Shown here in pieces: positions 30,798-41,057 of a stretch of DNA of 64,000 nt. Position numbers and translations under genes: made by a program. The notes under the pieces were generated by a model, which saw only the letters and a list, made by a program, of their open reading frames with translations, had not been told where the DNA came from and ran no database searches. This DNA comes from an uncultured delta proteobacterium (GTDB taxonomy: Bacteria > Desulfobacterota > Syntrophia > Syntrophales > UBA2185). Numbering within the stretch: the stretch's first letter is position 1; each line of letters opens with the position of its first letter. The stretch lies in contig CAVSPA010000003.1 of NCBI GenBank assembly GCA_963729715.1, forward strand, positions 288,001 to 352,000, read 5' to 3'.

Positions 30798-32242
30798 TTC
30801 GCATCTTCCTTTGTTTCACCTCTAAGCTCAATGATCTCCATGCGGTTGTTTGCCTCCGAGTGTCTCGATGATGGTCCTTCTGTCAGTATCACGAGATCTC
30901 CCTTCACCTCGTGGGTCAGCAACCAATCCCTTACATAAGCATTCCAGCCTTCAGGATGCTCGGGCTCGTACACCGGATAGACTCCACTGGTGAACAGGAG
31001 TCGCTGACAGGAATCCTCCCGGGAACTTACCCCAACAATCCACACGGGGAGCTTGAACCGGGCTATGGACCGCGCCGTTGTGCCGCTGTGGGTCGGAACA
31101 AATACGGCTGCGGGGGTGATGCGCTCCAAAGCCGCTTCGACGCTCAAGGCGATCAGATCCGTGACACTGACCGGGCCAGTACGTTCATGAGTTGTGAGAG
31201 CCTCTTTGAGACCGTGGCGGGAACGGTATGGCTCTGTTGCTGCGGCAATCTTCGCCAGCATGGTTACGGCATCCACGGGATATTTGCCCATGGCTGACTC
31301 TTCGGAAAGCATGACGCAGTCCGTGCCGTCAAGCACCGCATTGGCCACATCGGTAGCCTCCGCTCGAGTGGGACGTCGGTTATCCGTCATAGACTCCAAC
31401 ATCTGCGTGGCCGTGATGACTGGTTTTCTCGCTCTGTTTGCACTGTGAATGAGGCGCTTCTGAACAATGGCAATCTGCTCAATGGGTATTTCCACACCGA
31501 GGTCTCCTCGTGCGATCATGATGGCGTCCGCTGCTTCGATGATATCGTCCATGTGTTCCAATGCTCTTGAGCGTTCAATTTTCGCAATTATGAAGGGGTT
31601 GTATCCCAACTCAGCCGCGTACTCCCGTACAGCAACAACATCCGCAGCACTTTCCACAAAGGACTGACTGATCGCATCCACTCCCTGTTCAAGAGCAAAT
31701 GAAAGGCATTCGCGGTCGTAATCGGTGAAGGCGCTAATCCCGAGGTCGATGCCGGGCAGGTTGAGTCCCTTGTGGGAGCGCAATTCTCCACCTACAAGGA
31801 CCCGGCAGATGACCTCATTAGCCTCCACTTTTACTGCTTCAAGCTGTATAAGGCCGTCATTCAGAAACAGGGTATCACCGGGATTAACCGATTCCGGGAG
31901 ACGGTCAAAGCTAACCGACGCCCGTGTGGCATCTCCAACAATGTCCTGGGTCGTAAGGGTAAAAGAAGCCCTAGGCTGCAAATTAACCGGTTCATTTGCC
32001 AGATGGCCTATCCTTATCTTCGGGCCAGGCAGATCTGCCATGATGGCGATTCGTCGTCCCGCTGCAAGGGCCGAGGCGCGGAGGTTGTCGATAACCTGCT
32101 TATGACCGCCAAAATTGCCATGCGAGAAATTGAGCCGGGCCACATTCATACCGGCCTGTATCATCTCTGCCATGCATTCTCGCGATTCCGATGCCGGTCC
32201 AATGGTGGCCACAATTTTAGTCTTCTGTTCCGGAAGCTTCAT
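30794..32242 (-). CDS. pyk: Pyruvate kinase
   Basis: [38 protein letters not shown]. Confidence 0.97.
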
Positions 32243-32398
32243 AATAAGCCTGCACCTCCCCGGACACGATCTGCCCGTTAATTCAATGAGACTTGGCCTT
32301 TTTCAGGGCAACGCCCAAGAAAAAGGCCATGGGCGCATTGACCTCGTAAGATAGATCACCTTACCTCTTTACTGCAAAATTATATCTTTTTTTCTTTA

Positions 32399-34113
32399 AG
32401 AGTCAAAACATCTTGGACGTAATATATAAACAGATATGCTGTTTTAGTTGACAAGGAATGCCATTTGAAAGGGCGGATGTCCATCAAAATTGAACGATGC
32501 TCGACTTCAGCTTACTATAAGGAAGAGAAGTGAGGACATGGTATTCTCGATCTGTTAAAGTTGAATATCCCAAACAAAAATAACAGAAAGGAGAAGTGAC
32601 CATGTCCGAAAGAGATTATAACAGGCAGGCAGCAAGGCGTCAAAGGATCAGTAAGACAACACTGATAGTCGGGGTGGATGTCGGCAAAGCATTCAATGCA
32701 GTGGGATTTATGAATAAGGACGGCAACGTATTGGGCAGCTGTGCGAAGCTGTATAACAACCGGGAAGGGTTTGAGCAGTTTGTAAAGATGATCGAAGGGT
32801 TTAAGGCAAGACATCGTCTCAGAGACGTCCTCATCGGGATGGAGCCAACGGGGCATTACTGGAGGAAGCTTGCCTATTTTGCGAAAGAGCATGGCTATGA
32901 GGTACGCTTTGTGCGTACCACGGCGCTGAAGCATCACCGGGAGCTGGATGAGAGCTCCTCTGCCAAGAGCGACCGGAGAGATGCATTAACCATAGCGAAC
33001 ATTACCCGCGAGGGTAAATATATTGACACAGTCATCGAGGATGGAGTGCTGAGACAGCTGCGGACATTATCAAAGGCACGGGAGCGACTCCTCCGGTACA
33101 GTGTGAGTGCAAAGAACTCCCTGCATGCGGCCCTGGATGACTATTTTCCCGAACTGCATGAGATATTCCGGTCAATGGGGGCGCGGAGCTTGTGGGTGAT
33201 TCTTGAGAAGTGTCCTTTCCCTGAGGACGTTGTGTTGATGGAGACGTCGATTCTTCAGGAATTGATTGCACGGAGTTCACGAAAGAAAGCGGGATCTGCC
33301 GGGAAGGCAAAAGCGCTCTGCGAGGCAGCTCAAAAGAGTATTGGAGTAAAGCAGATCGGCACTGCTGACCGGTACCGGGTATGGATGTGCCTGGAAGAAG
33401 TGAAGCGGACGGTCCTGACGCTCAAGGATATGGATCGACAGCTGAAAAGCATGGTGAAGGACATTCCATCAACGCCCTATCTTATGAGCATCCCGGGCAT
33501 AGGTTACCTGTCTGCAGCTGTATTTCTGGGAGAACTGGGAAACCCTGCGCATTTTCATAATGCCCGCCAGATTGTGAAGTACGCCGGGTACGATCCCCAG
33601 GAGAGTGATTCGGGATCCCGGGTAGGCCGGAAGTTCATTTCCAAGAAGGGGCGGTGGCTCTTACGGAAGTATCTCTTCTTTATGAGTATGAGAGTGATAG
33701 TTTTGAGTAAATATTTTCAGGAGTATTATCACCGCAAATTAGAGACAAAGAACAGAGTGGGTCAGCAGCCCAGAAGGAAGGAGATTCTCTGCGCAGTGGC
33801 TATCAAGCTGATCAAAGTGATCTTTGCGCTGTTACGGGACAAACGGGGATTTGAAGATATGGCGCCTGCTGTAGCAATTGCATAAAACAAAAAAGTGGTT
33901 GTGGTGGAAGGAAGGACCGAATACCTTCGTAGGTCATAGGGCTTGCCTGATTCAGCTTGGTCAACTTCCACCACCCTTTTCGTCCTGCATAAGGTAAGTT
34001 GGGCAGAAGGCCCGTAGAATAAAAGAGGTTAGGTGAAAAGGAATAAAAAGGTTGAAGTACCACCACAACCATTTACAGCTTTAACAGTGTGTCACAAGAA
34101 AATACTTGACTCT
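32399..34113 (+). mobile_element. IS110-family element A (IS1111-like, sub-terminal inverted repeats); true ends probably a few bp outside
   Basis: AGAGTCAA 32399-32406 / TTGACTCT 34106-34113 bracket the recombinase gene; structured non-coding ends. Confidence 0.7.
32596..33885 (+). CDS. IS110-family recombinase/transposase A
   Basis: DEDD RuvC-like (VGVDVGK, MEPTG, KSDRRDA), SIPGIG, AGYDP..SDSG. Confidence 0.95.
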   Translation: MTMSERDYNRQAARRQRISKTTLIVGVDVGKAFNAVGFMNKDGNVLGSCAKLYNNREGFEQFVKMIEGFKARHRLRDVLIGMEPTGHYWRKLAYFAKEHGYEVRFVRTTALKHHRELDESSSAKSDRRDALTIANITREGKYIDTVIEDGVLRQLRTLSKARERLLRYSVSAKNSLHAALDDYFPELHEIFRSMGARSLWVILEKCPFPEDVVLMETSILQELIARSSRKKAGSAGKAKALCEAAQKSIGVKQIGTADRYRVWMCLEEVKRTVLTLKDMDRQLKSMVKDIPSTPYLMSIPGIGYLSAAVFLGELGNPAHFHNARQIVKYAGYDPQESDSGSRVGRKFISKKGRWLLRKYLFFMSMRVIVLSKYFQEYYHRKLETKNRVGQQPRRKEILCAVAIKLIKVIFALLRDKRGFEDMAPAVAIA

Positions 34114-34122
34114 CTTCTCTAG

Positions 34123-34405
34123 AAGCAATTGACCCCGGTGCTACGCAACGGTGTTATTCATGGAAGAAACTGGCTTTATTAAATACAATTTTATAAAGTA
34201 GGCAGCGGGTGCGCCCCGGCAGTCAATATCGACTCCTCACTGGTGTTTTCATACCCGTCTAGAAGCATGGTACCGAGTTTTCTTTGGTTATTACATTGGT
34301 GACAAATCATGTCTTTTCGGCATGTCAGATCCCGTTCAGGAGATTAACCGTTTTTTACCGACTCGGGCCGGGGCATGCCCCAAAAACCAATCAGGGGGCA
34401 AGTTT
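34123..34405 (+). ncRNA. Candidate bridge-RNA-encoding left end of element B
   Basis: ~280 bp non-coding left end with TCAGGAGA (donor junction match) and TCTAGAAGCA (left junction match); RNA not demonstrated. Confidence 0.5.
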
Positions 34406-35806
34406 ATGGGGAACAGTCTTAAAAGGCAACAAAAGAAGTTATCCGTCCAATCTAAGGATTCCGGTATGCTATCCAAGCTTAATTTAAATGCCGCCGGCAT
34501 AGATATCGGTGCAGAGGAGCATTATGTCGCCGTCCCCGAAGATCGTGATAAGCGTCCCGTGCGTCCCTTCCGTTGTTTTACATCCGATCTTCATGCGATG
34601 GCCCAGTGGCTGAAAGAGTGCCGAATCGATAGTGTTGCCATGGAGTCAACGGGTGTTTATTGGATCCCGGTGTTTCAAATTCTTGAGACTTACGGGTTTG
34701 AGGTCAAACTGGTTAATGCCCGGCATGTGAAGAATGTTCCCGGCCGTAAATCGGATGTTCAGGATTGCCAATGGCTGCAAAATCTCCATGCCTACGGTCT
34801 TTTAAGCGGTTCGTTTCGACCGGAAGACCAGATTTGTGTTATGAGGAGTTATTGGCGCCATCGTGACAATCTTCTTCGTTATGCATCCTCTCATATCCTG
34901 CATATGCAGAAGGCGCTTACGGAGATGAATATCCAGTTGCACAAAGTCATCTCGGACATTACCGGTGTTACCGGCATGCGTATTGTTCGTGCCATCATTG
35001 CCGGTGAACGTGACCCCCTTGTTTTGGCCGACATGAGAGATCGCCGTATTATGTGCAGTGTCCAGGACATCGTCAAATCTCTGGAAGGGGACTATCGTGA
35101 AGAACATATGTTTGCTTTAAAGCAGGCCGTTGAACTTTATGATTTTTATCACCAGAAGATTGAAGCCTGCGACCGGCAGATAGAGAATTGTTTGGCCCAA
35201 TTCGACTCCAAATTAGACATAAACACTAACCCGGTGCCTCCTTCAAAAAAGGCAAACAGAAAGCGAAGACGCAACGAGCCTAAAATCGATTTGCATACTC
35301 ACTTATACCGGATAACCGGCGCCGATTTAACCCGGATTGACGGGTTGGATGTAATGACTGTCCAGACGGTCATTAGCGAGGTTGGCCTTAATCCTGGATC
35401 TTTCCCTACGGAGAAGCATTTTGCATCCTGGCTGGGATTATGCCCGGATAATCGCATTACCGGCGGAAAAGTAAAATCCAGTAAAACCCGTAAAGTGGTA
35501 AATCGAGCCGCTGAAGCCTTTCGTATGGCCGCTGAATCTTTGCACAGCAGCGCAAGTGCCTTAGGCGCATATTACCGCCGTATGCGTGCGAGGCTTGGGG
35601 CACCCAAAGCGATTACCGCGACAGCCCATAAGCTTGCCCGCATATTCTATCGTCTTTGGAAAAACGGAGAAGCCTATCTGGACCCCGGAGTAGACTATTA
35701 TGAACAAAAATACAAAGAACGAGTAATTAAAAATATTAAAACTAAAGCCAAACAATTAGGTTATGCCATTACTTTGGAACCTCTCGCTAGCAATGTACGT
35801 TCTTAG
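34406..35806 (+). CDS. IS110-family recombinase B, copy 1
   Basis: AAGIDIG, MESTG, KSDVQDC, WLGLCP..RITGG, AHKLAR; AGGGGG RBS before ATG 34406. Confidence 0.95.
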   Translation: MGNSLKRQQKKLSVQSKDSGMLSKLNLNAAGIDIGAEEHYVAVPEDRDKRPVRPFRCFTSDLHAMAQWLKECRIDSVAMESTGVYWIPVFQILETYGFEVKLVNARHVKNVPGRKSDVQDCQWLQNLHAYGLLSGSFRPEDQICVMRSYWRHRDNLLRYASSHILHMQKALTEMNIQLHKVISDITGVTGMRIVRAIIAGERDPLVLADMRDRRIMCSVQDIVKSLEGDYREEHMFALKQAVELYDFYHQKIEACDRQIENCLAQFDSKLDINTNPVPPSKKANRKRRRNEPKIDLHTHLYRITGADLTRIDGLDVMTVQTVISEVGLNPGSFPTEKHFASWLGLCPDNRITGGKVKSSKTRKVVNRAAEAFRMAAESLHSSASALGAYYRRMRARLGAPKAITATAHKLARIFYRLWKNGEAYLDPGVDYYEQKYKERVIKNIKTKAKQLGYAITLEPLASNVRS

Positions 35807-35968
35807 GAAACCCTTATTGGACGTGAAGTTTCTCAGGAGGTAAGTTGGGCAGAAGGCCCGTAGAATAAAAGAGGTTAGGTGAAAAGGAATAAAAAGGTTG
35901 AAGTACCACCACAACCATTTACAGCTTTAACAGTGTGTCACAAGAAAATACTTGACTCTCTTCTCTAG

Positions 35969-37685
35969 AAGCAATTGACCCCGGTGCTACGCAACGGTGT
36001 TATTCATGGAAGAAACTGGCTTTATTAAATACAATTTTATAAAGTAGGCAGCGGGTGCGCCCCGGCAGTCAATATCGACTCCTCACTGGTGTTTTCATAC
36101 CCGTCTAGAAGCATGGTACCGAGTTTTCTTTGGTTATTACATTGGTGACAAATCATGTCTTTTCGGCATGTCAGATCCCGTTCAGGAGATTAACCGTTTT
36201 TTACCGACTCGGGCCGGGGCATGCCCCAAAAACCAATCAGGGGGCAAGTTTATGGGGAACAGTCTTAAAAGGCAACAAAAGAAGTTATCCGTCCAATCTA
36301 AGGATTCCGGTATGCTATCCAAGCTTAATTTAAATGCCGCCGGCATAGATATCGGTGCAGAGGAGCATTATGTCGCCGTCCCCGAAGATCGTGATAAGCG
36401 TCCCGTGCGTCCCTTCCGTTGTTTTACATCCGATCTTCATGCGATGGCCCAGTGGCTGAAAGAGTGCCGAATCGATAGTGTTGCCATGGAGTCAACGGGT
36501 GTTTATTGGATCCCGGTGTTTCAAATTCTTGAGACTTACGGGTTTGAGGTCAAACTGGTTAATGCCCGGCATGTGAAGAATGTTCCCGGCCGTAAATCGG
36601 ATGTTCAGGATTGCCAATGGCTGCAAAATCTCCATGCCTACGGTCTTTTAAGCGGTTCGTTTCGACCGGAAGACCAGATTTGTGTTATGAGGAGTTATTG
36701 GCGCCATCGTGACAATCTTCTTCGTTATGCATCCTCTCATATCCTGCATATGCAGAAGGCGCTTACGGAGATGAATATCCAGTTGCACAAAGTCATCTCG
36801 GACATTACCGGTGTTACCGGCATGCGTATTGTTCGTGCCATCATTGCCGGTGAACGTGACCCCCTTGTTTTGGCCGACATGAGAGATCGCCGTATTATGT
36901 GCAGTGTCCAGGACATCGTCAAATCTCTGGAAGGGGACTATCGTGAAGAACATATGTTTGCTTTAAAGCAGGCCGTTGAACTTTATGATTTTTATCACCA
37001 GAAGATTGAAGCCTGCGACCGGCAGATAGAGAATTGTTTGGCCCAATTCGACTCCAAATTAGACATAAACACTAACCCGGTGCCTCCTTCAAAAAAGGCA
37101 AACAGAAAGCGAAGACGCAACGAGCCTAAAATCGATTTGCATACTCACTTATACCGGATAACCGGCGCCGATTTAACCCGGATTGACGGGTTGGATGTAA
37201 TGACTGTCCAGACGGTCATTAGCGAGGTTGGCCTTAATCCTGGATCTTTCCCTACGGAGAAGCATTTTGCATCCTGGCTGGGATTATGCCCGGATAATCG
37301 CATTACCGGCGGAAAAGTAAAATCCAGTAAAACCCGTAAAGTGGTAAATCGAGCCGCTGAAGCCTTTCGTATGGCCGCTGAATCTTTGCACAGCAGCGCA
37401 AGTGCCTTAGGCGCATATTACCGCCGTATGCGTGCGAGGCTTGGGGCACCCAAAGCGATTACCGCGACAGCCCATAAGCTTGCCCGCATATTCTATCGTC
37501 TTTGGAAAAACGGAGAAGCCTATCTGGACCCCGGAGTAGACTATTATGAACAAAAATACAAAGAACGAGTAATTAAAAATATTAAAACTAAAGCCAAACA
37601 ATTAGGTTATGCCATTACTTTGGAACCTCTCGCTAGCAATGTACGTTCTTAGGAAACCCTTATTGGACGTGAAGTTTCTCAGGAG
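35969..37685 (+). mobile_element. IS110 element B, copy 2 (preceded by duplicated flank 35840-35968 = 33994-34122)
   Basis: Apparently identical repeat at +1846 bp. Confidence 0.85.
36252..37652 (+). CDS. IS110-family recombinase B, copy 2
   Basis: Identical translation to copy 1. Confidence 0.95.
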   Translation: MGNSLKRQQKKLSVQSKDSGMLSKLNLNAAGIDIGAEEHYVAVPEDRDKRPVRPFRCFTSDLHAMAQWLKECRIDSVAMESTGVYWIPVFQILETYGFEVKLVNARHVKNVPGRKSDVQDCQWLQNLHAYGLLSGSFRPEDQICVMRSYWRHRDNLLRYASSHILHMQKALTEMNIQLHKVISDITGVTGMRIVRAIIAGERDPLVLADMRDRRIMCSVQDIVKSLEGDYREEHMFALKQAVELYDFYHQKIEACDRQIENCLAQFDSKLDINTNPVPPSKKANRKRRRNEPKIDLHTHLYRITGADLTRIDGLDVMTVQTVISEVGLNPGSFPTEKHFASWLGLCPDNRITGGKVKSSKTRKVVNRAAEAFRMAAESLHSSASALGAYYRRMRARLGAPKAITATAHKLARIFYRLWKNGEAYLDPGVDYYEQKYKERVIKNIKTKAKQLGYAITLEPLASNVRS

Positions 37686-38273
37686 GCAAACAGAAAGCGA
37701 AGACGCAACGAGCCTAAAATCGATTTGCATACTCACTTATACCGGATAACCGGCGCCGATTTAACCCGGATTGACGGGTTGGATGTAATGACTGTCCAGA
37801 CGGTCATTAGCGAGGTTGGCCTTAATCCTGGATCTTTCCCTACGGAGAAGCATTTTGCATCCTGGCTGGGATTATGCCCGGATAATCGCATTACCGGCGG
37901 AAAAGTAAAATCCAGTAAAACCCGTAAAGTGGTAAATCGAGCCGCTGAAGCCTTTCGTATGGCCGCTGAATCTTTGCACAGCAGCGCAAGTGCCTTAGGC
38001 GCATATTACCGCCGTATGCGTGCGAGGCTTGGGGCACCCAAAGCGATTACCGCGACAGCCCATAAGCTTGCCCGCATATTCTATCGTCTTTGGAAAAACG
38101 GAGAAGCCTATCTGGACCCCGGAGTAGACTATTATGAACAAAAATACAAAGAACGAGTAATTAAAAATATTAAAACTAAAGCCAAACAATTAGGTTATGC
38201 CATTACTTTGGAACCTCTCGCTAGCAATGTACGTTCTTAGGAAACCCTTATTGGACGTGAAGTTTCTCAGGAG
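37686..38273 (+). pseudogene. IS110 element B, 5'-truncated copy 3 (588 bp; C-terminal Tnp domain + right end)
   Basis: Equals 35252-35839; begins at internal AAAG|GCAAAC site. Confidence 0.9.
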
Positions 38274-38374
38274 GAAGAGGTTAGGTGAAAAGGAATAAAA
38301 AGGTTGAAGTACCACCACAACCATTTACAGCTTTAACAGTGTGTCACAAGAAAATACTTGACTCTCTTCTCTAG

Positions 38375-40091
38375 AAGCAATTGACCCCGGTGCTACGCAA
38401 CGGTGTTATTCATGGAAGAAACTGGCTTTATTAAATACAATTTTATAAAGTAGGCAGCGGGTGCGCCCCGGCAGTCAATATCGACTCCTCACTGGTGTTT
38501 TCATACCCGTCTAGAAGCATGGTACCGAGTTTTCTTTGGTTATTACATTGGTGACAAATCATGTCTTTTCGGCATGTCAGATCCCGTTCAGGAGATTAAC
38601 CGTTTTTTACCGACTCGGGCCGGGGCATGCCCCAAAAACCAATCAGGGGGCAAGTTTATGGGGAACAGTCTTAAAAGGCAACAAAAGAAGTTATCCGTCC
38701 AATCTAAGGATTCCGGTATGCTATCCAAGCTTAATTTAAATGCCGCCGGCATAGATATCGGTGCAGAGGAGCATTATGTCGCCGTCCCCGAAGATCGTGA
38801 TAAGCGTCCCGTGCGTCCCTTCCGTTGTTTTACATCCGATCTTCATGCGATGGCCCAGTGGCTGAAAGAGTGCCGAATCGATAGTGTTGCCATGGAGTCA
38901 ACGGGTGTTTATTGGATCCCGGTGTTTCAAATTCTTGAGACTTACGGGTTTGAGGTCAAACTGGTTAATGCCCGGCATGTGAAGAATGTTCCCGGCCGTA
39001 AATCGGATGTTCAGGATTGCCAATGGCTGCAAAATCTCCATGCCTACGGTCTTTTAAGCGGTTCGTTTCGACCGGAAGACCAGATTTGTGTTATGAGGAG
39101 TTATTGGCGCCATCGTGACAATCTTCTTCGTTATGCATCCTCTCATATCCTGCATATGCAGAAGGCGCTTACGGAGATGAATATCCAGTTGCACAAAGTC
39201 ATCTCGGACATTACCGGTGTTACCGGCATGCGTATTGTTCGTGCCATCATTGCCGGTGAACGTGACCCCCTTGTTTTGGCCGACATGAGAGATCGCCGTA
39301 TTATGTGCAGTGTCCAGGACATCGTCAAATCTCTGGAAGGGGACTATCGTGAAGAACATATGTTTGCTTTAAAGCAGGCCGTTGAACTTTATGATTTTTA
39401 TCACCAGAAGATTGAAGCCTGCGACCGGCAGATAGAGAATTGTTTGGCCCAATTCGACTCCAAATTAGACATAAACACTAACCCGGTGCCTCCTTCAAAA
39501 AAGGCAAACAGAAAGCGAAGACGCAACGAGCCTAAAATCGATTTGCATACTCACTTATACCGGATAACCGGCGCCGATTTAACCCGGATTGACGGGTTGG
39601 ATGTAATGACTGTCCAGACGGTCATTAGCGAGGTTGGCCTTAATCCTGGATCTTTCCCTACGGAGAAGCATTTTGCATCCTGGCTGGGATTATGCCCGGA
39701 TAATCGCATTACCGGCGGAAAAGTAAAATCCAGTAAAACCCGTAAAGTGGTAAATCGAGCCGCTGAAGCCTTTCGTATGGCCGCTGAATCTTTGCACAGC
39801 AGCGCAAGTGCCTTAGGCGCATATTACCGCCGTATGCGTGCGAGGCTTGGGGCACCCAAAGCGATTACCGCGACAGCCCATAAGCTTGCCCGCATATTCT
39901 ATCGTCTTTGGAAAAACGGAGAAGCCTATCTGGACCCCGGAGTAGACTATTATGAACAAAAATACAAAGAACGAGTAATTAAAAATATTAAAACTAAAGC
40001 CAAACAATTAGGTTATGCCATTACTTTGGAACCTCTCGCTAGCAATGTACGTTCTTAGGAAACCCTTATTGGACGTGAAGTTTCTCAGGAG
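38375..40091 (+). mobile_element. IS110 element B, copy 4 (preceded by duplicated flank 38275-38374 = 34023-34122)
   Basis: Apparently identical repeat at +4252 bp; followed by unique flank AGGAAGGTAG. Confidence 0.85.
38658..40058 (+). CDS. IS110-family recombinase B, copy 4
   Basis: Identical translation to copy 1. Confidence 0.95.
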   Translation: MGNSLKRQQKKLSVQSKDSGMLSKLNLNAAGIDIGAEEHYVAVPEDRDKRPVRPFRCFTSDLHAMAQWLKECRIDSVAMESTGVYWIPVFQILETYGFEVKLVNARHVKNVPGRKSDVQDCQWLQNLHAYGLLSGSFRPEDQICVMRSYWRHRDNLLRYASSHILHMQKALTEMNIQLHKVISDITGVTGMRIVRAIIAGERDPLVLADMRDRRIMCSVQDIVKSLEGDYREEHMFALKQAVELYDFYHQKIEACDRQIENCLAQFDSKLDINTNPVPPSKKANRKRRRNEPKIDLHTHLYRITGADLTRIDGLDVMTVQTVISEVGLNPGSFPTEKHFASWLGLCPDNRITGGKVKSSKTRKVVNRAAEAFRMAAESLHSSASALGAYYRRMRARLGAPKAITATAHKLARIFYRLWKNGEAYLDPGVDYYEQKYKERVIKNIKTKAKQLGYAITLEPLASNVRS

Positions 40092-40466
40092 AGGAAGGTA
40101 GTCTCACCCACCACATCTATCATAACTGAAGTTGTTCCTAGAAGGATTACAACCCGTTATCAATATCGATGCGGAAGATCGTACACCTCATCTCTGTACG
40201 AATGGGTGTAAACACTATAATGGTCTCACTGATGTCAATGATGGGAAGTTCAAGGAATTCTGTTGGGAAGATGGATGCAAAAAAATTTACGAAGGTCATT
40301 ATTGTAGATTGCATGATAGTAATAAACCCATATTCTAGTCAGGATCTCTGTTCAGTTCATACGGGGTCGGAAGACCAGTAACTTTTGAGGGAGGGGGAAA
40401 TTTGGTCTGTATTTGAAGACCAGCATGCTTTATAGTGTATTAAACTACTAATAGGAGGAACAAAAT

Positions 40467-40649
40467 ATGCCCACTGTGATTATCGAAGCAGATGAAGGAA
40501 GAACAGTCGAGCAAAAGAGGGGTCTGGTGAAAGACATTACCGATGCCGTTTGCAGGAATTTCAAAGTCCCTCCGGATGCTGTGACCATTTTTATTCACGA
40601 AGGGAAAAAGGAAAATCGCGGGAAAGCGGGAAAGCTCGCTATAGACTGA
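40467..40649 (+). CDS. 4-oxalocrotonate tautomerase family protein
   Basis: Pro-1 (MP), EGRTVEQKR, 60 aa, AGGAGG RBS. Confidence 0.92.
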   Translation: MPTVIIEADEGRTVEQKRGLVKDITDAVCRNFKVPPDAVTIFIHEGKKENRGKAGKLAID

Positions 40650-41057
40650 GGCCTCCACCACATTTATTCTCCCTCGTTCGAGCCGCTGTGTTTCGGGAAT
40701 TTCTTCAGTACGCAGACGTCTGCGCTTTTTAGTAAATTCAGACCTCACCTGTCCGATAGGCGTAGTCCTTATGGAGATCCTCATAACTTTATCTGATTAG
40801 TACGCCCGTCTTTAGATGAAGAGAAGTCGCGGCTGCCGAAGGTCGTTTCAATAGAGGCCGTTCCTTCTATTTTGTGAGGGGTTTTCCATGATCCAGCTCA
40901 GACAGGATACAAGACACATGGAAAGGGTGAGCAGGAACAATATACTAAGATCCACCATCCATTTTTTTGCTTTCAGATTATTCATGCATAATGATTTATC
41001 AACAATGACCAAGGCAGCTCATTTGTTTTTCATGCTTGCCATGGGGGCTATATATGC

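Follow-up and report, generated by a model that had tools for sequence, protein, structure and literature searches.

A probable bridge RNA with a variant loop layout in an IS110-family element inserted at the tip of another element

Bridge RNAs serve as programmable recombination tools, and to our knowledge nearly all mechanistic understanding of them comes from IS621 and a few close relatives. We took the rules of the IS621 bridge RNA from the main text of PMC11208160 and PMC11208158 and compared them with an IS110-family element, here called element B, in a window of 64,000 nucleotides, the whole stretch of DNA that was analysed. As far as those texts describe IS621, several features are shared. 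In both elements the RNA lies in the left non-coding end, upstream of a recombinase gene of the DEDD/Tnp type, and contains a target loop followed by a donor loop, both of them internal loops. Each loop has a strand that is sense to the left arm and core, the target loop also has a strand antisense to the right arm, and next to the core stand two extra letters whose match to the partner DNA arises only once strands have been exchanged (the handshake).

Element B also shares two traits with the IS1111 group as the text of PMC11208160 presents it. It has subterminal inverted repeats, which covary here in 53 of 57 distinct pairs (GAAAC/GTTTC, GGAAC/GTTCC, GTAAC/GTTAC and ATAAC/GTTAT), and it is inserted into the tip of another mobile element, a habit for which the same text cites IS4321/IS5075. 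In contrast to the IS1111-group members with a right-end bridge or seek RNA described there, the RNA of element B is found in the left end, upstream of the gene, and unlike in that group the left repeat sits about 40 nt inside the tip.

We estimate a probability of about 0.88 that positions 34197-34400 on the plus strand are the bridge RNA of element B and direct its insertion at CTAGA-AG^AGGAAG. The sequences show the structure and its strand, three of the four guides, the handshake-like pair, the target and the empty site; transcription of the RNA, its binding by the recombinase and recombination by IS621 chemistry are what we infer.

Element B and its target in element A

The features of element B and of element A, into which it is inserted, are as follows.

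32503-34125 plus 40092-40097: element A, a second IS110-family element, unrelated to element B, whose last 6 nt are cut off by the insertion of B
32596-33885: reading frame of element A, with both Pfam domains
34119-34123, plus strand: left target arm (LT5) CTAGA, equal to the N5 of the first loop; belongs to the right tip of element A, not to B
34124-34125, plus strand: left copy of the core dinucleotide AG
34126-35837, plus strand: element B, IS110-family insertion sequence (copy 1), placed by the family register and the empty sites
34133-34151, plus strand: candidate palindromic hairpin region of the left end, read from the sequence, between the tip and the subterminal segment
34154-34158, plus strand: subterminal left-end segment TTATT, sense-identical to the UUAUU of the donor loop, 8-12 nt upstream of the left subterminal repeat
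34166-34170, plus strand: left subterminal inverted repeat GAAAC, covarying with the right repeat GTTTC
34406-35806, plus strand: recombinase gene, 466 aa, Pfam DEDD_Tnp_IS110 and Transposase_20
35828-35839, plus strand: right tip, consisting of the subterminal repeat GTTTC (35828-35832), the left donor arm TCAGG (35833-35837) and the core AG (35838-35839)
35972-37683, 38378-40089 and, partial, 37686-38271: other copies of element B in the window
40085-40097, plus strand: true right junction, TCAGG-AG followed by AGGAAG, which is the right target arm and forms the final 6 nt of element A

The recombinase of element B has the DEDD (RuvC-like) domain and the Tnp domain that define the IS110 family (DEDD_Tnp_IS110, PF01548, E 6e-18; Transposase_20, PF02371, E 1e-10), and all 8000 of the 8000 homologue candidates scored were found at E <= 1e-30. 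The genome holds seven full-length copies of element B with 100% identity and one partial copy; three of the full copies and the partial one lie within the window. As expected of the family, insertion is site-specific, with a shared core and without a long target duplication. The left side of all five independent insertion sites in the same genome reads [C/T]TAGA-AG, and the right side, where present, reads AG-AGG[A/G][A/G]G. Within the element, the right repeat GTTTC directly abuts the 5-nt donor arm, and palindromes like the one at 34133-34151 are visible in the left ends of relatives.

The family register sets the core at 34124-34125 and has the element begin at 34126, which predicts an empty target of CTAGA-AG-AGGAAG. 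The answer came from six relatives of the host in which element A is present. Its right tip is uninterrupted in nine of the ten loci examined. Each of these nine has YTAGA-AG-AGGAAG with unrelated DNA after it; the tenth locus gave a match of 15 nt only. These empty sites confirm the register and refute the empty target CTTCTCT-AG-AGGAAG proposed in a preliminary description of this DNA. The left boundary of element B lies 3 nt to the right of the earlier call, and the element starts with CAATTG (34126) rather than with AAGCAATT (34123). The circle junction predicted earlier was thus wrong and becomes TCAGG-AG-CAATTG. A YTAGAAGAGGRRG site in the same genome (contig C7), considered as an empty target, proved uninformative.

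By this register, the insertion point of element B is therefore six bases short of the end of element A on its right side. A second pair of A and B, 97.6% identical, was found on contig C4. Element A itself has a long 3′ non-coding end, and its own guide RNA may lie in this right end.

A conserved RNA structure in the left end

Relatives were sampled from 80 genome loci and 80 metagenome loci with recombinases 43-93% identical to that of the window, and a scaffold upstream of the recombinase gene was common to them. A structure of six helices was proposed from the alignment and evaluated on 55 sequences, and a covariance model (R1) was built from it. The predicted RNA extends over approximately 34204-34380 on the plus strand, in the left non-coding end of element B, with the following parts.

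34197-34400, plus strand: match of covariance model R1 (bridge RNA), 137.8 bits, E ~1e-41, structured core 34213-34374
36043-36246 and 38449-38652, plus strand: identical R1 matches in the window, 137.8 bits each
34213-34220, plus strand: 5′ strand of helix P1, pairing with 34367-34374; changes on both sides in 8/8 pairs
34227-34231, plus strand: 5′ strand of helix P2 (UAUCG), pairing with 34268-34272 (UGGUA) and closing the target-binding loop; 96.7% of cells paired
34241-34257, plus strand: capped hairpin of the target loop, UGGUGU...ACCCG; 99.6% of cells paired
34273-34277, plus strand: helix P3, pairing with 34362-34366; changes on both sides in 5/5 pairs
34284-34287, plus strand: helix P4, pairing with 34358-34361, weaker; 56.8% of cells paired
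34297-34334, plus strand: capped hairpin of the donor loop, UGGUGAC...GAUCCCG; 93.4% of cells paired, changes on both sides in 6/9 pairs

Across the 55 sequences, 85.3% of the structure cells pair, compared with 30-46% when the partners are slid against each other. Compensatory changes occur in 27 of the 36 pairs, and the observed values were reached by none of 500 shuffles. The closing pair of the target-loop hairpin switches between C-G and U-A in 25 sequences. Helices P3 and P4 together close the donor-binding loop. The model found 160 matches, 84 in 79 sources and 76 in 80 sources. Counted by locus, it matched 76 of the 78 loci from genomes and 75 of the 80 from metagenomes (151/158), all on the recombinase strand. 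Folding of the single sequence was uninformative, with neither strand better than shuffles (z -0.93 and +0.20), and the structure was taken from the alignment. An Rfam scan of window positions 32000-41000 gave no match at E up to 1.

The preliminary description had drawn plausible guides on either strand and left the choice between them undecided. The aligned sequences now assign transcription to the plus strand, since each of the 160 model matches is on the strand of the recombinase gene and since U-G pairs are invariant at two positions (55/55 sequences) and G-U is found at a third (50/55); on the other strand these would be A-C mismatches. In the window, as in most relatives, the RNA precedes the gene. 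Downstream matches of R1 were seen in three loci only (L138:2632-2832, L140:1821-2021 and L141:2226-2417), in two of which, L138 and L140, the RNA lies about 50 nt before a GTTTC-N5-AG tip. In these three relatives the RNA has moved to the right end.

A scan for consensus promoters and terminators gave no match of either kind. A possible -10 box lies shortly before the structure:

34192-34197, plus strand: TATAAA, about 15 nt before P1, with an A/T-rich box in the same place in close relatives

Separately, TTGACC, 17 nt and TGTTAT follow one another at 34129-34157 inside the left end, an arrangement that the scan did not call; it could be a promoter, or TGAC could be conserved for another reason. 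Metatranscriptome contigs from four runs of four studies cover 34120-34462 at 90-95% likeness, a level that places only relatives' sequences in RNA libraries and bears on neither strand, ends nor transcription.

Guides to the target and the donor

The motif CCCGU-N5-AG is present twice in the RNA, each time directly after a capped hairpin of the form UGGUG...CCCG. The guides read from these two loops are listed here.

34233-34239, plus strand: right target guide CUCCU (34233-34237), followed by C (34238), a possible partner of the core G, and A (34239)
34259-34267, plus strand: left target guide CUAGA (34259-34263), core-binding AG (34264-34265), handshake-like CA (34266-34267)
34288-34295, plus strand: 5′ strand of the donor loop, UUAUU (34288-34292), then A and CA
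34336-34343, plus strand: left donor guide UCAGG (34336-34340), core-binding AG (34341-34342), conserved A (34343); guide and core equal the right tip 35833-35839

Three strings in this region had been pointed out before, and all are where they were reported: TCAGGAGA at 34336-34343, TCTAGAAGCA at 34258-34267 and CTCCT at 34233-34237, the two longer ones each following CCCGT. The reported identity of TCTAGAAGCA with the left junction holds, as a second occurrence is found at 34118-34127. In the window it occurs six times against 0.10 expected (0/100 shuffles reach six), at the junction and at one internal site in each of the three element B copies. This 10-mer is explained as a constant U, the 5-nt guide, the core and two handshake-like letters; its match to the junction is real, with the qualification that the last two letters, CA, are an extension that tracks element bases 1-2. 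The string TCAGGAGA alone is not rare in the window, with 7 matches against 2.87 expected and 2/100 shuffles reaching 7; it is comparison with relatives that gives it meaning. Its match to the donor junction was located correctly, but only 7 of the 8 nt fit the corrected junction. The partner of the CTCCT string is the right arm of the target, (G)AGGA, and not the AGGAG of the donor.

Guides were counted on 150 RNAs after ten of the 160 model matches had been dropped, nine that the reading frame did not follow at a distance of up to 260 nt (extra copies from tandem or stacked arrays, as well as RNAs downstream of the gene) and one that was among the three identical window copies. AG follows the N5 in 138/150 first-loop and 145/150 second-loop guides. 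The left target guide occurs in 96 distinct forms among the 150 RNAs. As a 7-mer (N5 plus AG) it is found exactly in its own upstream zone, the 215 nt upstream of the RNA, in 80 of 107 loci, compared with 1.15% for foreign guides. Guide and flank change together even among near relatives: the guides of the window (CTAGA), L091 (TTAGA) and L092 (CTACA) each agree with their own flank, and in L019 and L020, which are 96% alike, the guides CTAAG and TCAGG, respectively, are each matched by the flank. The left donor guide behaves in the same manner, its 7-mer being found just after the reading frame of its own locus in 108/125 cases versus 1.9% for foreign guides.

The junctions of the relatives were located via the guide 7-mers, which makes the tests of the right arm, the handshake letters and the subterminal segment conditional on this placement and partly circular; independent support for the placement comes from copy pairs and from empty sites. 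Conditional on the placement, the right target guide shows an anti-diagonal excess of complementarity to the first five bases of the right flank of +30, +24, +15, +11 and +19%, and at least four of five pairs form in 30/111 cases (27%), compared with 2.0% after permutation. Within the window its partner is the (G)AGGA of AG-AGGAAG, with four of five positions paired plus the core G. A point against the reading is that, in the right-hand guides, the conserved A next to the C stands opposite the core A. Under the same condition, agreement of the two handshake-like letters with element bases 1 and 2 reaches 97% and 86%, where permuted controls give 73% and 32%. The target loop thus tracks both arms of the target (left 80/107, right 30/111), as is required of a bridge RNA. 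Pairing of the right arm is weak: many natural right flanks mismatch the right target guide, for example at the right junction of L091, and only 27% reach four of five. These mismatched flanks suggest that joints made by the right tip only are common in the family of element B.

In the mechanism we propose, the strand U-CUAGA-AG-CA after the hairpin of the target loop would read the left target arm and core, and CUCCU-C before the hairpin would pair with the core G and the right target arm AGGA, to which it is complementary. The recombinase would in this way be guided to CTAGA-AG^AGGAAG, the right tip of the unrelated IS110-family element A. In the donor loop, the strand U-UCAGG-AG-A after the hairpin, identical to the right tip of the element with its core, would read the donor.

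In three loci (L134:1663-1918, L068:1790-2054 and the left flank of L020) a second, different member of the family is placed precisely at the right tip of a first, and in such stacked pairs the left target guide of the second member equals the left donor guide of the first. Family members thus stack head to tail, with one taking the tip of the other as its target.

The fourth guide, for the right donor arm, does not follow the expected pattern. A guide antisense to element bases 1-12 was sought in every part of the RNA, and no segment showed covarying complementarity to these bases: the position matrix had no diagonal, the scan of all RNA parts gave nothing consistent (the 45-nt stretch before the first hairpin, with 8-14 usable rows, was noise), and the longest complement was 3.28 in own pairs and 3.28 in controls. 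A guide placed 3′ of the left donor guide was tried against the subterminal segment and rejected (own pairing 4.01, control 4.03), as was a helix joining the 5′ donor-loop strand to the letters after the core, whose signal reflects helix P4. What the 5′ strand of the donor loop does match is the subterminal segment in the left end, in the sense direction. Given the junction placement described above, diagonal identity is in excess by +26 to +51%, and at least four of five letters are identical in 35 of 58 distinct pairs, compared with 4.9% after permutation.

With this match, a single DNA strand would be bound by both strands of the donor loop, at two sites that are separated by about 26 nt and have the palindrome between them. 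Tentatively, the donor might be read on one DNA strand, as a folded single-stranded circle closed by the GTTTC/GAAAC inverted repeats, and the RNA would then pair with two exposed single-stranded stretches of this circle. We consider this unlikely on balance. Recent reports of single-stranded intermediates would fit such a reading.

The 34197-34400 region might also be understood without a bridge RNA. The CCCGT-N5-AG units could be double-stranded accessory DNA sites that the recombinase binds directly. The left end also holds covarying DNA-level inverted repeats and a sense duplicate of one loop strand, both easier to picture as DNA features, and the scan without a promoter or terminator match is in line with DNA sites too. 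This idea nevertheless seems very improbable to us, because compensatory changes keep the helices paired (27/36 pairs), because the U-G pairs (55/55 at two positions) and the G-U pair (50/55) make sense only in a single strand read from the plus strand, and because the guides are flanked by helices as in the published description of the IS621 bridge RNA. Nor do we give more than minimal credence to a mere 5′ leader that regulates the recombinase mRNA, with the junction matches as by-products of the target preference of the protein. The structure does end some 30 nt short of the start codon, CAGGGGG at 34392-34398 resembles a ribosome-binding site, and no terminator was found between structure and gene. 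A leader, however, needs neither 96 different 7-mers that match their own left flank (80/107 vs 1.15%) nor a second strand complementary to the right flank, and the same RNA downstream of the gene in three relatives argues against it.

A bridge RNA of element B is the reading we retain. The preliminary description had proposed such an RNA in the left end, with two guide-bearing loops and an AG core, and had named beforehand the covariation of guides with target and donor flanks across homologues as a check. Covariation of the guides with flanks and tips is seen in about 150 relatives and, together with the conserved structure, supports that proposal.

The tandem array and the relation to described systems

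Positions 33994-40091 form a head-to-tail array of two 1846-bp units, a partial unit of 588 bp and one further unit.

33994-35839: first unit
35840-37685: second unit
37686-38273: partial unit, copy of 35252-35839
~38278-40091: further unit, copy of 34026-35839
35828-35839, plus strand: first joint, right tip TCAGG-AG joined to a copy of 33994 onward
37679-37685, plus strand: second joint, TCAGG-AG, then a copy of 35252 onward
38267-38277 (or, taken more widely, 38267-38285), plus strand: third joint, irregular, TCAGG-AG-GAAG, then a copy of 34026 onward

Every joint begins exactly at the right tip TCAGG-AG, and two of the three continue at sites natively preceded by AG (33992-33993 and 35250-35251). 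The four extra bases of the third joint, GAAG, are the end of the tip of element A. None of the three joined sites resembles a target guide. A joint in the metatranscriptome contigs that goes back 1844 is explained by the duplicated segment of element A and does not argue for a circle.

It is conceivable, though we think it improbable, that the array of three and a half units is an assembly artefact or a product of ordinary homologous recombination rather than of the recombinase of the element. Units that are 100% identical are hard to assemble, and the third joint is irregular. Against this stand the precise start of all joints at TCAGG-AG and the continuation of two of three after a native AG. 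The text of the preprint 10.64898/2026.08.14.744561 moreover reports that the boundaries of IS110 tandem units keep almost only left-donor matches, and recombination on half a match is described in the text of 10.64898/2026.08.31.748434. In the terms of these two preprints, the array resembles reported cases in having full and partial units and a match to the left donor (right tip) only. It differs from the reported IS110 tandem loci in being a single locus known from sequence, and in its third joint with four extra bases.

The layout of the loops differs from that of IS621, as given in the text of the IS621 papers, in several ways. The order of the guides within each loop is reversed, so that in element B the strand before the capped hairpin is antisense to the right arm and the one after the hairpin is sense to the left arm. 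The core on the recombinase strand is AG in the family of element B and CT in IS621, and the arms are 5 nt here compared with 7 and 4-7 nt there. The handshake-like letters follow the left-arm guide here, whereas in IS621 they follow the right-arm guide. For the right donor arm, an antisense guide was not found and a sense match to the subterminal site takes its place. Read on the other strand, the target loop takes on the arrangement of IS621 and the core becomes CT: first comes a 5′ guide whose last letter is C, next a 3′ guide, and then AG with the two handshake letters. The difference can therefore be described either as a reversed loop order or as a recombination site inverted relative to the transcription of RNA and gene. 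In the running text of the literature searched on bridge RNA loop order and IS110 tandems, no reversed order was found. Published surveys, including the text of PMC11208160, report many bridge RNA structures that deviate from IS621, and the layout of element B may thus already be catalogued.

Taken together, the RNA is a genuine bridge RNA in a system of known type; the boundaries and the target are now corrected, and the loop layout is a variant of that of IS621. The family of element B is large and found mainly in peat, wetland and soil metagenomes. With 96 different left-arm guides among 150 RNAs it offers many natural retargeting events, and its guide rule, CCCGU-N5-AG, is short and easily read. 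The order of the loop strands is opposite to that of IS621 and the fourth guide departs from the published rule; if what this guide reads is a same-strand subterminal site, that has a direct bearing on the debate about single- and double-stranded intermediates. Should the one-strand reading of the donor be true, it would make this a bridge-RNA system for a single-stranded intermediate, with the polarity of the site inverted relative to IS621. The locus is also a natural example of tandem duplication anchored at the right tip, and a natural case of an insertion sequence whose target is the tip of a second one.
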